Assembly (NCBI RefSeq): GCF_028641065.1
Contig: NC_073397.1
Coordinates: 20,770,001 to 20,834,000 of the forward strand
Length of the DNA stretch: 64,000 bases
Reading direction: 5' to 3'
Origin: Leucoraja erinacea
Taxonomy: Eukaryota
The notes under the pieces were generated by a model, which saw nothing but the letters and a program-made list of their open reading frames with translations, did no database searches and was not told where the DNA came from. The translations under genes and the position numbers were made by a program. This document shows positions 27,022 through 48,763 of this stretch, piece by piece. Positions within the stretch are counted from its first letter, which is position 1; every line of letters begins with the position of its first letter.

Positions 27022-28836
27022 AGACACTTACAATTATGCCACCAAAATAGAACAAGAAATTTCAACCAATAACACAAGAACTGTCTGGAAAAAACTTCAG
27101 GAAAGCACCAACTACAAAAAGAAATCCACCCCATCCCTGATAATGATCATCAACTCCCAGATAAACTGAACATTTTCTATGGCAGGTTTGAACAGTCTCC
27201 AGTCCCTCCACCCCCGTCCCCCTCTCTTCCTCCCCCTCCATTCCACATCCAGGAGGCCGAGGTGAGGATTACCTTCAGGAGACAGAAGAAAAATAAATCA
27301 GCAGGCCCAGACAACATCAGCCCAGCAGTGCTCCATCATTGTGCTGCAGAACTGGCCCCCGTCTTCACCAACATCTTCAACACCTCCCTCTGCCAATGTT
27401 CAGTGCCCCAGTGCTTCAAACAATCCACCATCATTCCTGTGCCCAAGTCTAACACAACATCCTGCCTCAATGACTACAGACCAATTGCCCTTACATCCGT
27501 GACCATGAAGTCATTTGAGCGCATCATTCTCGCTCACCTCAAAACCAGCACTTCCTCCAACATGGACCCATATCAATTTGCATATAGAGCCAACAGGTCA
27601 GTAGAAGACACAGACAACCTGGCCATCCATCACACTGCAACACCTGGAAACCGCCAACACTTACGCCCGCATCCTGTTCATGGACTTCAGTTCTGCATTC
27701 AACTCCATCAACCCGGTCAAACGCTTCCATAAATTAACGGACATGAACATTGACCCCTGCATCTGTCACTGGACCCATAGTTTCCTTTGGAATAGACAAC
27801 AAAGGGTGAATATACACAACACCATATCTCACCCTCTGCACCTCAGTACAGGAGCCCCTCAGGGCTGCGTCTTGTCACCCTGGTTATTCTCACTCTATAC
27901 AAATCATCTCACATCCCAGTATAGTTCAGTCAAAATATACAAATACGCAGATGACACAACCATCATAGGTCTCATCTCTAACAACAACGAAACAGAATAC
28001 CGCACTCAAACACACAAAGCAGTCACTTGGTGCACAGACAATAACCTCCTACTCAACACATCAAAAACCCATGAACTTATCATCAACCTCAGACGTAAGG
28101 CACAACCCAAGACCCCCCTACTCATCTCCGGCGAACCCATATCCACCACTGACTCATTCAAATTTCTTGGCACTCACATAAGCAATAACCTCAAATGGAA
28201 AACCAATTCAGATCACATTTATAAAAAAAGCCAACCAAAGACTCTTCTTTCTCCGCCAGCTCAAGAAGTTCAGAGTGAGGAAACATCTCCTAATCCAATT
28301 TTACACAGCCATCATCCAAAGCATGCTCACTTCATCAATAACAGTTTGGTACAGCAGTTTAGATACTCGCTCCCGTAATAAACTACAGCGCATTGTCAAC
28401 AAAGCATCCAAAATCATCAGCACTCCCCTCCCATCAATAGAATCACTCAATCTCGAACGGTCCGTGTCAAGGGTGAAGAAAATCATTTCTGATCCCTCCC
28501 ACCCCGTTCACCACATCTTCCACCTGTTGCCCTCAGGGAGGCGCTACAGCTCACTGCCTGCCAAAACATCACGATTCAAAAACAGTTTCTACCCATATGC
28601 AATTCGAACTCTGAACACTCTATGATAATATCACAAAGCCACCCCGTGCATGTACTGAACACTGTATGTTGTCTGTGCTTTATGTTATGTTATGTTCTGC
28701 TTACTGTGTTCTTCCGTTCCACAAACTGTATGTCTGCACGACTGGAATCAGCTTATTGTGTAACATTCTGTACTGAATATGAATTCCACCAGTTTGACGG
28801 TGTGGTGATTAAATAATCTTGAATCTTGAATCTTGA
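27022..28836 (+). mobile_element. Rex1/Babar-clade LINE, 5'-truncated and frameshifted
   Basis: ORFs 27262-28625 contain KSAGPDNI, LNDYRPIALTS, MDFSSAFN, TGAPQGCVLSP, KYADDTTI and LLPSGRRY. (TCTTGAA)n tail; apparent TGAAGACA target duplication inside a Penelope-derived repeat. Confidence 0.9.
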
Positions 28837-28992
28837 AGACAGACACAAAACTCAGTGTCAGGCCGTTTTGGGTCTATATTGGACTGAGAATCGGGGAGGG
28901 AGAAACTAAAGGTATGAGAAAGTACAGAACAAAGCAAAGCTTATATTGATGACTCGGGAAAGGTGGAGCCCACAATGGACTGTTGTTGTGTT

Positions 28993-29024
28993 CAAAGATC
29001 CTATAGTCTGCTATAGGATCTTTG
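28993..29024. mobile_element. 32-bp TIR-only relic in an 8-bp target-site duplication (P-element-like footprint)
   Basis: GTTGTGTT-[CAAAGATCCTATAG tctg CTATAGGATCTTTG]-GTTGTGTT: perfect 14-bp inverted repeats and a perfect 8-bp direct repeat at 28985-28992 and 29025-29032. Confidence 0.75.
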
Positions 29025-29034
29025 GTTGTGTTGG

Positions 29035-29260
29035 AAGGAAAAGCAGATTCTGGTTTAAACCAAAGATAGACACAAAAAGCTAGAGTAACTCAGCATCGCT
29101 GGAGGAAAGGGATGGGTGATGTTTGGGGTCGAGACCCTTCTTCTGACTGGTTTGGGATAAGGGTCTGAAGAAGGATCTCGACTCGAAAAGTCACCCATTC
29201 CTTCTCTCCAGAAATGTTGCCTGTCCCACTGAGCTCCTCCAGCTTTTTGTGTCTATCTAT
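29035..29260. repeat. Palindromic Penelope-derived repeat with hammerhead-like core (one of more than 10 degenerate copies)
   Basis: Inverted arms AGATAGACACAAAAAGCT...AGCTTTTTGTGTCTATCT enclose two opposed copies of the motif CTGAAGA-AGGGTCTCGACCC-GAAA-CGTCACC, each with mismatches. Confidence 0.7.
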
Positions 29261-29699
29261 GTTCTGTTGTTGCCTGGGGACCAGGTGATAACGAAGAAAT
29301 ACAAACAGTGAAATTAGCAAGAGTAGGGTACGGGAGGGACGGGGTGAGAGGGAATGCAAGGGCTGCTTGAAGTTAAATAAATTAATATTGATTCCTTTTC
29401 TCCAGAGATGCTGCCTGACCCGCGGAGTTTCTCCAGCATTTTTTGTCTATTGCCCGGAGGAGATTGTTGAGGCAGGTAATATCGCAACGTTTAAGAAACA
29501 TTTAGACAGGCGGATAGGGCAGGTTTAGAGGGACATGGACCAAACGCAGGCAGGTGGGACTAGTGTAGCTGGGACATGTTGGCCGGTGTGGGTGAGTTGG
29601 GCCGAAGGGTCTGTCCCCATGCTGTTACTGCCCCACTCTCTGACCCTCTCCGCCTCTGTGACCTCATCCGCTGCCTGGCAACAAACACATAAACACCCG

Positions 29700-29800
29700 A
29701 CGACCATTGGTTCAATTAAATTAAAACGGCAACCTGATTGGTGGGGTGTTGACGGGAGCGATATTCAAATAAACGGCGGGAGGGGCGAGGCGGTCAGAGA
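29700..29800 (+). promoter_or_regulatory. UBE2C core promoter: tandem CCAAT boxes plus CHR element
   Basis: ATTGG at 29706-29710 and 29737-29741 (31-bp spacing), TTCAAA (reverse CHR, TTTGAA) at 29764-29769, and GGCGGGAGGGGCG; this is the known architecture of G2/M DREAM/NF-Y-regulated genes. Confidence 0.65.
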
Positions 29801-29802
29801 GG

Positions 29803-30052
29803 AGGTGGAAGCGGCCGATATACACACGGGCACGGCTGTTGTTGGTGGTGGAAGCGGCCGATATACACACGGGCACGGCTGTTGGTGGTGGAAGCGGCCG
29901 ATACACACACACGGGCACGGCTGTTGGTGGTGGAAGCGGCCGATATACACACGGGCACGGCTGTTGGTGGTGGAAGCGGCCGATATACACACACGGCTGT
30001 CGGTGGTGGGAGCGAATATATATATACACACACACGGCTGTCGGTGGTGGGA
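29803..30052 (+). repeat. Minisatellite, ~40-bp unit, ~6 copies
   Basis: Unit GGTGGAAGCGGCCGATATACACACGGGCACGGCTGTTGGT repeated in tandem, degenerating towards the 3' end. Confidence 0.9.
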
Positions 30053-30131
30053 GCCCGGACGAGCATACCTCAAGCCCAGGCGAAAACAGCACCGCTGGTC
30101 AGACCCACCCCCCGCCCGCCCTGCAGCCACA

Positions 30132-32976
30132 ATGGCCCAGAACGTGGACCCCACCACCGCCGCGGGCACCGCCGCAACCCGAAAAGGCAGCGAAAGCGGC
30201 GCGGCCATCACCCGTGGTTCGGTGTCCAAAAGGCAAGTCGGGGTGGACCGAGGGTTTGCGGGGCGCCACGGCTGGCGGCTGGGCTACTTGAGTCTAACTG
30301 TCTCGTGTCTTCCCACAGGTTACAACAGGAACTGATGGCCCTCATGGTGAGTCCACAAGGGGAAGATTTGTGCGGTTGGGGGTGGGGATACTCCTTTTTC
30401 CCCATTATGGCCAATGTCGCTTGCAGAACCTGAATCGAGCCCCTTGTTGTTTTGTTCTTTCAGATGTCCGGTAACAAAGGAATTTCCGCTTTCCCCGAGT
30501 CGGACAATCTCTTCCGTTGGATTGGCACCATTGACGGCGCCGTGGACACGGTGAGCGGACACTGGGGGCAAGCTTGGGCCCGGCCTAGTTTTGTAGCGTG
30601 AGCAAGGATGTGATGGGCCGCCGACTCTGCTTTAAATTCTACGCGAGGACCTGAAAGTAAATGTGCTCTGATTGATCTTGTTTACAGGTCTATGAGGGTT
30701 TGAGGTACAAGCTCTCTCTAGAATTCCCCAGTGGCTACCCGTACAACGCTCCCACGGTGAAGTTCCTGACCTCCTGCTATCATCCCAATGTGGACGGAGA
30801 AGGCAACATCTGTCTGGACATCCTCAAAGACAAATGGTCAGCACTTTATGACGTCAGGACGATCCTGCTGTCGATTCAGAGTTTACTGGGAGGTAAGAAT
30901 TTCTGTCTGAAATAGAGGATCCGAGTGACTTTGTGCAGGTATTTAGCACGAGGCTTATTTGCTATTGGACCTCGGATGTTGGGGGAACTAATAATTTCAC
31001 TATTGCAAAGCGCCTTGCATTATTAAATTAAGGGCTGCAGTTCAATTGAGCATTTGCGAGGCCATATCTGGAGCCGTGCGTGTTTTTGACCTCCAGTAAA
31101 CCTTTCTCTGAGCTAATACTGAGAATGAGTGTTGTCTTCTGATAAAAAAAAAGATTGTCATAAGAGCATGGGGGAGAGTGATTTGAAGCGCAAGATCCCG
31201 AGGAGTATTCAGGTGAGAGGATACTTCCCCTTTGTGGGGGAAATCTGCAACTCGTACTCTCTACCTAAGACGTATGGGGCACTCTTTGGCATTATCCCCG
31301 TAAGGATTTGGAAGCATAATATTTGAAGCTGACTTTATTGTGAGAAGTTACTCTGATAGAACGGGAATGGGTGGTTGACAGTCAATTTGGATTCCGTGAG
31401 CGCAAGGATTAGTTTTGTTACTCTGTCTAGACAAACGGGTAGTTTACAGTGTCCGTGTGGCCTGCTGTTGCACATATTTCGCATCTATTGTACATGTTGT
31501 CCTTGTTTGGGTATCTGCACTCATTCCCCTAGGATTCCTCTTTGTTCTCAATTTAAATTGAGACGCTGCCCCACCCATTGATTTACTCGAGCACTTGGTG
31601 CCTTTTTATTCCCAGCCATTTTGTTCTTGGATCTGATTAGTGTTGAAGGGAGTATTTGTTTCAATTTTTGTGACTTCCCATTGAGATTTCACACATTTCT
31701 ACATGAGTAGACCTGCTTGTAATGGTTTTTCCTTTGCCCCTAATGTGACTGAATTTATTGTTAGTTGCCATTTTTATCAAAAAAATATATAAAATGGCGT
31801 ATGGGATCCTAGACTTTATGTGAAACTAGGCAAGAAAATTGTAGGTAGACAAAAACGCTGGAGAAACTCGGCGGGTGAGGCAGCATCTATGAAGCGAAGG
31901 AAATTGGCAACTTTTCGGGTCGAGACCCTTCAGAAAATTGTAGGCTTTTTTTGCGGGGGGAGGTGGTTTGACCACAACACCAATTCACTCCTGGGTGCCA
32001 CGTAATAAGATTGGAGAAAATAGGTGATGTTTTGGGTCGAGACCCTTCTTCAATCTACAGTTTAAGCCAGCATCTGTAGTTCCTTTCTGCACATTTCGTC
32101 TTACATTTGGTAACCTTTGTTTTTTTCCTTTCTCTAAAATAGAGCCAAACATACAGAGTCCCCTGAATGTTGCTGCAGCTCAATTATGGTCTAATCAGCA
32201 AGGTAAGGGGCCATTCCAGTTTTCCGTTAGAAGGCTTTGGAGTGGGGTGTCCTGGACTGTTTGTCTCTGAACATAGAGCATCTTGAACTTTGCATTGAGA
32301 TTTCATGATACCCAGTTTGTAAAGTACCCCATCTTCATCCATGCCCTCTCTTCCCAACCCCACCCCCTGCTCTGGCCCGTACCTTCTGCCCTTTTGTGTG
32401 GACCTGGTCGAGTTGTCATTTGAAGTGAATCTGCAGAGGGCATTTAATCTTAAAGCCGCTCACCCCCCTTTGTCTGGACTGTTCGTTGCTGGTATTGTCC
32501 CTCTTTGATCATCCTGGTCCTGTTTTAGTGAAATTAACCAAGTGATCTATCAGCTGGTTCCTGGAGGTAGGATGATGAATGGGGTCCTCCTGAGGGCAGT
32601 AGGCTCTACTAGGTGGGAAATCTGGGGACTAACCCTTGCTTTGGCTGGGTGGGAGGAAAGAGGAACAGTTGATTATAGCTCTCTTGTATATCAGTTTCAA
32701 GTTTAAGGCAATTTAAATATTTGCATGTGTTTTTAATTTGTAACATCCATCCCAATGAGGAATGCACTGCAGTTTCATTAAAACAATCTGAGTAATTCCA
32801 TGACTAGAGTTTTACTCCACTAGACATTTGACCCCCACATTTGGTGGGTGGGAGCTTGGCCTGGGATTGTTGTGGATAGAGTTACTGAATGAGCTCTCAG
32901 TCTGACATAATGTGGGTTTGTTACAGAGTACAAGCAACGGCTACATGAGGCATATGCACGACAGCTGAAGAGTTGA
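30132..32976 (+). CDS. UBE2C: Ubiquitin-conjugating enzyme E2 C (UbcH10), 6 exons, 176 aa
   Basis: Exons 30132-30232, 30319-30346, 30464-30550, 30688-30892, 32143-32202, 32927-32976 (531 nt). Motifs [32 protein letters not shown] and [40 protein letters not shown] (catalytic Cys). Intron 1 donor is AG|GCAAGT. Confidence 0.97.
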
Positions 32977-48640: not shown

Positions 48641-48763
48641 GACAATTTGCTGCTGCCTGCCCGCTGAGTTAAAAAGTTCTCATGCAAGACTCACGATACA
48701 CTGTGTATCGTGAGTCTACCGTGGGAACTTTTTAACTCAGCGGGCAGGCAGCAGCAGATTGTC
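48641..48763. repeat. 123-nt near-perfect inverted repeat (hairpin)
   Basis: 61-nt arms centred on 48702 with 5 mismatches, three of them G-U compatible on the + strand. Confidence 0.9.

Follow-up and report, generated by a model that had tools for sequence, protein, structure and literature searches.

Genomic context of the locus

The window, that is, the whole 64-kb stretch of DNA that was analysed, is CpG-depleted DNA of the vertebrate type (CpG observed/expected 0.40). It is rich in LINE pieces and short repeats, with one Tc1 fragment among them, and the features discussed here are collected in Table 1. The central one is a short palindromic insert between two copies of an 8-bp target-site duplication. 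At its right flank, outside the scar, begins an older, very high-copy palindromic repeat of about 200 bp, which recurs at about ten other places in the window and makes up the bulk of the 58,000–71,000 contigs that were placed on the region per run.

Downstream of the insert lies the beginning of the UBE2C gene, whose first introns are very short. Directly upstream of its start codon, in a CpG-rich region, there are about six copies of a 40-bp tandem repeat (29804–30054), possibly a variable-number repeat in the UBE2C promoter or 5′ UTR. CCAAT-like boxes and a TTCAAA word are found near 29700–29770, also upstream of UBE2C, and this arrangement presumably resembles a cell-cycle promoter. The first CpG-island-like bin begins at 29501, 469 bp from the scar. 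A preference for promoters is a trait of the P superfamily; since this is a single case (n = 1) and 17% of the window is equally near by chance, the promoter proximity of the scar is not taken as evidence.

Table 1. Position, strand and basis of the features at and around the insert (coordinates of the window).
Feature	Position	Strand	Basis
Broken transposase fragment of Tc1/Sleeping Beauty type	11071–11642	-	HTH_SB match
8-bp target-site duplication, left copy, GTTGTGTT	28985–28992	.	Direct reading and window scan
Left transposon end, CAAAGATCCTATAG, 14 nt retained	28993–29006	+	Direct reading; identical terminus at many other loci
Centre, TCTG	29007–29010	.	Inferred from the centre classes of related genomes
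Right transposon end, outer 14 nt	29011–29024	-	Direct reading
Right copy of the 8-bp duplication, GTTGTGTT	29025–29032	.	Direct reading and window scan
Older, very high-copy palindromic repeat	29028–29261	.	
UBE2C, start codon plus first coding exons (1.1 kb downstream of the insert)	30132–30891	+	

Structure of the insert

The original prediction described a 32-bp insert with 14-bp arms, a 4-bp spacer and an exact 8-bp flanking duplication, and direct reading of the sequence confirmed all of these elements. The two arms are perfect 14-bp inverted repeats, each starting with CAAAG. When the window was scanned for perfect arms of at least 10 bp, lying no more than 5 kb apart and flanked by an exact duplication of at least 6 bp, 28985–29032 was the sole match, and in a scan for CA...TG inserts of 12–80 bp between 8-bp repeats it was accompanied by one weak match with a 4-bp arm. 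Among 20 simulated windows with matched dinucleotide make-up, none had a match with arms of at least 8. The hairpin formed by the insert folds with z = −8.2, and 0 of 200 shuffles folded equally well. Apart from the two arms, no copy of the terminus with 0–1 mismatches occurs in the window, and at up to three mismatches there are 13 matches, the mean expected by chance being 13.0. Two perfect hairpins without flanking duplication were also seen, at 48687–48717 (15-bp arms, 1-nt loop) and at 7211–7238 (12-bp arms, 4-nt loop).

The centre TCTG is best read as positions 15–18 of the right end, that is to say, 18 nt would be retained on the right, and the window copy would be a blunt join of 14 + 18 nt, which is the rarer type. 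The centre probably carries one CpG-type transition.

Stub family in related genomes

Public runs from six organisms were considered; in the best-covered of them, 14–63% of the words sampled from the region are present. Five of the 24 runs listed were examined (X1, X3, X15, X17 and X20), which represent organisms A, B, D, E and F with one run each. The family of terminus pairs is present in all five organisms examined, with many different centres. Further copies of the terminus thus do exist, as the original prediction had expected, both in related genomes and in invertebrate metagenome contigs. Runs X1, X15, X17 and X20 contributed 157, 220, 212 and 130 contigs, respectively, to the 89-bp stretch that surrounds the insert (the order kept for the values below); nearly all of these contigs sit on the terminus pair and have unrelated flanks, and 91, 99, 112 and 48 contigs extend into such flanks. 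Compared with the median depth of the eight contigs listed per run, the summed depth over the two arms is higher by factors of about 490, 520, 1060 and 700. Because depth is not equal to copy number, the family size is read only as "probably hundreds" per genome.

The short copies do not share one identical centre, in line with what had been anticipated: at least 12 centre classes were found among those listed in these four runs, together with four more, and the same classes occur in X3. The 28-bp form, which has no centre, accounts for 47, 42, 36 and 76% of the summed depth, and the main 33-bp form (+C) for 23, 22, 34 and 2%. The 31-bp forms make up from a few to about 13% of the depth, and the 38-bp form 2.6%, in X17 only. 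The 32-bp form seen in the window is itself unamplified, contigs at least 99% alike to it numbering 0, 0, 1 and 0. All these shares refer to inserts of about 28–39 bp, the range that the likeness used admits in the fish genomes; the model set out below would require a sharp upper size limit. Since the class shares differ between organisms, it is suggested that the stubs kept accumulating after the lineages split, and for the same reason they would be good phylogenetic markers.

Junctions between the two ends

When the right end of the window copy is read inward, its innermost self-complementary word is GC at positions 14–15, and two ends joined at this GC give a computed length of exactly 28 bp. 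Judging from the inserted letters of the 36- and 38-bp classes (CGAAGC and GGAG), a second GC would lie at end positions 19–20. The three pairings of the two GC words yield 28, 33 and 38 bp, a series that fits the end-joining of long retained tails, like the repair of P donor sites in Drosophila. In the donor-site junctions of Table 1 of PMC2895639, 17-nt 3′ tails are kept between the 8-bp duplications, and among the isolates given in that source one kind of join, symmetric and made close to the tip at a dinucleotide that is its own complement, accounts for 14 of 27 with short microhomology and 14 of 66 overall. The same model would also predict a 22-bp join at CTATAG, which falls outside the range of about 28–39 bp covered by the placing.

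The stagger of 17 nt that the original prediction had carried over from Drosophila is not established for this family, as the 33- and 38-bp classes require tails of about 19–20 nt and the stubs of invertebrate DNA described below require 24–26 nt.

The same terminus in invertebrate DNA

Metagenome contigs were scanned for the two arms at a distance of 0–30 bp, which allows inserts of 28–58 bp, and 14 loci with the 14-bp terminus pair were obtained from two metagenome contig sets. These loci have no sequence in common with the flanks in the window, and their CpG observed/expected ratio is 0.89. In locus L004, the one that was compared, there is a DCN1 exon; among named sequences it is most like that of a brachiopod (77%, with fishes at 72% or less), which points to host DNA that may be lophotrochozoan-like.

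The lengths of the metagenome stubs range from 33 to 51 bp, nine of the 14 measuring 46–51 bp. Duplications of 8–9 bp flank six stubs, which belong to one subfamily: the duplication is an exact 8 bp in four, has one mismatch in one, and is 9 bp long in one. When tails were taken from L008, four of the five other stubs of this subfamily corresponded to microhomology joins at GC or CGCG that need no more than 24 nt, and the fifth (49 bp, like L008) is longer than the 24-nt tails supplied in that comparison permit. The other eight stubs, from five independent sites, form a second subfamily with the same 14-bp terminus (L001, L002, L007 and L014, with a 51-bp stub, and L004, L006, L009 and L013). 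They show no clear duplication, and the length retained at each end reaches about 26 nt; four of them are copies of one larger repeat that carries the stub along. It is possible that the missing duplications reflect age, or joins between the ends of different insertions. Two invertebrate stubs at unrelated sites have an identical layout of 24+1+24.

In viral contigs, neither the terminus pair nor a longer terminus motif had any match. In 596 billion prokaryote bases, the arms of the 14-bp terminus had one match, a Neobacillus hairpin (L015:8001–8047) that has no duplication and lies between A and T runs, as a terminator does; it was rejected as unrelated and is taken as chance.

Superfamily of the parent element

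Termini of the CANRG type are the ends of P-superfamily elements. The CAAAG end fits this motif and also the hAT motif YARNG, so it does not discriminate between the two, and the 8-bp duplication likewise falls within the 7–8 bp of the P superfamily and suits hAT equally. As for the sources, target duplications of 8 bp for P and 7 bp for 1360 are given in PMC3276498, and PMC3014272 gives 8-bp duplications and YARNG ends for hATs. In three of four runs the eight letters before the terminus form a weak GT-N-Y-R-GA-C-like consensus (agreement 0.37–0.44), which is biased by the query flank. This consensus is close to the palindromic P target motif GTCCGGAC (PMC2577343), and it fits the hobo target GTNCGNAC (PMC3276498) as well.

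The mechanism of cleavage is more informative. In hAT cleavage, as presented in PMC5499845, the hairpin forms on the flanking DNA, and therefore no sequence of the ends should stay behind after simple hAT excision. The presence of 14–18 nt of both ends conflicts with plain hAT excision, but not with a gap-repair deletion. For the Drosophila P transposase, PMC7776569 describes a cut with a long stagger that falls within the ends, and 17 nt is the only P stagger reported as measured. On this mechanistic ground, that is, the retention of stubs of the ends, P would be favoured over hAT. No P-type transposase was found among seven ORFs from the retrieved loci and six from the window, and searches of metagenome, viral and prokaryote sequence retrieved no long parent element with these ends.

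The original claim of a P-element footprint thus divides into two parts. That the insert is an excision scar is well supported; the assignment to P is putative, as the ends, the duplication and the target bias fit hAT or hobo too. The insert behaves like a P footprint and would probably belong to P.

Proposed mechanism and rival explanations

It is fairly probable that the insert is a donor site that was repaired after a cut-and-paste DNA transposon had left it; the transposon would probably belong to the P superfamily, and its transposase would cut with a stagger of about 20 nt. As the structure shows, an element with CAAAGATCCTATAG ends inserted here and duplicated 8 bp of its target. Later, transposase would have excised the element, so that each flank kept some end sequence as a single-stranded 3′ tail. 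Host end-joining would have shortened these identical tails and sealed them together, in most cases through pairing of the GC at 14–15 and 19–20, to produce the 28-, 33- and 38-bp forms, as the junction spectrum suggests. The window copy would have arisen by the rarer blunt join of 14 and 18 nt. The scar would then have become fixed, and the excision would therefore have taken place in germ-line cells or at an early embryonic stage. A stub of only 32 bp is probably inert, since it is too short for two long staggered cuts to be made without overlap, and no function has been shown for the single stub at 28985–29032.

Several findings count against a P scar. The tails of 19–20 and 24–26 nt exceed the measured P stagger, the junction of the window copy lacks microhomology, eight of the 14 invertebrate stubs are without a clear duplication, and the identical 28-bp form takes up 36–76% of the depth, as an amplified micro-element would give. 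In addition, when excision by zebrafish THAP9 was assayed in cells, the outcome was larger deletions of the flanks and not neat stubs (bioRxiv 2024.03.22.586318).

The lengths beyond 17 nt would be explained easily if the parent were a hAT, or another element with 8-bp duplications, and gap repair copied the outer 14–26 nt of each end from the sister chromatid before a microhomology join, which amounts to an extreme internal deletion. The CAAAG end, the hAT-like duplications and the hobo-like target bias suit such a parent, and microhomology-mediated miniaturisation has been described for a Tc1/mariner element (PMC3814204). However, aborted synthesis should spread the sizes, whereas the invertebrate stubs, at 33–51 bp within the allowed 28–58 bp, suggest a ceiling (at small n), and the discrete series of 28, 33 and 38 bp fits fixed tails; this origin is considered unlikely. 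The prominence of a single 28-bp form and the 24+1+24 layout common to two unrelated sites would agree with a mobile micro-MITE made up of ends only and moved in trans, like Made1, in which two 37-bp inverted repeats surround 6 bp (PMC1784062), but much shorter. Such an element is improbable here, in that neither the length nor the centre is uniform, with at least 12 centre classes, and the 32-bp variant of the window has not been amplified. Moreover, P transposase needs binding sites inside 31-bp repeats (section 6 of PMC7776569), and staggered cuts would be expected to overlap in 28–33 bp.

There is also a slim chance that the element was lost nearly precisely without any transposase, through a stem that folds back at replication and slippage at short repeats that deletes the loop and leaves the base of the stem. 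Tn10 provides a precedent for transposase-independent, nearly precise loss, and the stubs are strong hairpins with microhomology at their junctions; this process, however, fails to explain why lengths cluster by family (14–20 nt in the fish runs, up to 24–26 nt in the invertebrate) and why the duplications are mostly intact. As for the chance meeting of a palindrome and a repeat, only the short length speaks for it, and its probability is negligible: it is refuted by the uniqueness of the structure in the window, the simulations, the shuffles and the many family members, the lone bacterial match lacking a duplication. The repaired donor site of a probably P-like element is the reading that we prefer.

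Age, novelty and significance

The insert had been regarded as probably recent in view of its perfect repeats, but these do not establish recency. With 0 mismatches in 14 + 8 paired positions, the pairwise divergence is bounded below 12.7% (95%), so that the 22 matching positions allow up to that value, and the family is common to at least five organisms. The unique left flank (28848–28873) is covered at single-copy-like depth in all four runs placed on the wider region, and a contig of X1 matches 28808–28934 with 0 differences. In X1, X15, X17 and X20, no contig runs from the left flank into the stub, and the depth is 0 at 28966–28980. Under the settings used, with shortest listed pieces of about 33 letters and filters that drop records, this speaks neither for an empty site nor against the stub. 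Within the window, the left flank has no paralogous counterpart free of the insert.

The excision mechanism is already known from flies. Among the matches listed for literature on skate P elements and THAP9, and on excision footprints in cartilaginous fish, none describes this family, which may already be catalogued in repeat databases, and the papers listed for the 14-bp terminus are unrelated by title. We tentatively suggest, while regarding it as somewhat doubtful, that a P clade with an invariant 14-bp terminus occurs in a cartilaginous fish lineage and in a lophotrochozoan, by deep conservation or marine horizontal transfer, with staggers of about 20 and about 25 nt, and that it has left fixed germline scars by the hundred in each genome. 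If so, the stagger length of P enzymes would be open to evolution and could be read from fossils in the genome, and the scars would document in nature how the vertebrate germ line joins DNA ends. If the stubs are natural P footprints, a P-type family was mobile in a vertebrate lineage, with both insertion and excision in its germ line, stagger length varies between families, and each genome contains a large set of natural products of double-strand-break repair.

Comparison with known systems

A close likeness is to the P donor-site products of Drosophila melanogaster, as described in PMC2895639 and PMC7776569: both 8-bp duplications are kept, two stubs stand tail to tail, the centre is variable, one symmetric join at a self-complementary dinucleotide dominates, and the total is about 30 bp. 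In contrast to the fly products, which in those sources were recovered in experiments, the scars reported here occur in nature as fixed features of many genomic loci. Their end sequence is different, their tails are about 20 nt (fish) and 24–26 nt (invertebrate) against 17 nt in the fly, and their parent enzyme is putative. The zebrafish Pdre2/THAP9 elements are also a vertebrate P-like family, with 13-bp terminal repeats starting with CA and 8-bp duplications; their terminal sequence is another one, and bioRxiv 2024.03.22.586318 describes copies with internal deletions and excision accompanied by larger deletions of the flanks, rather than stubs made of ends only.

With hATs such as hobo and Hermes, the family has in common the 8-bp duplication, the YARNG end and a target of the GT-N4-AC type (PMC3014272, PMC3276498), but hATs form their hairpin on the flanking side of the cut (PMC5499845), and plain excision should therefore take the element ends away completely. 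Made1 of Hsmar1 is likewise a palindromic element composed of ends only; as characterised in PMC1784062, it is 80 bp long, mariner-type and has a defined 6-bp centre, whereas the stubs of this family measure 28–51 bp, have many centres and lie between 8-bp duplications.
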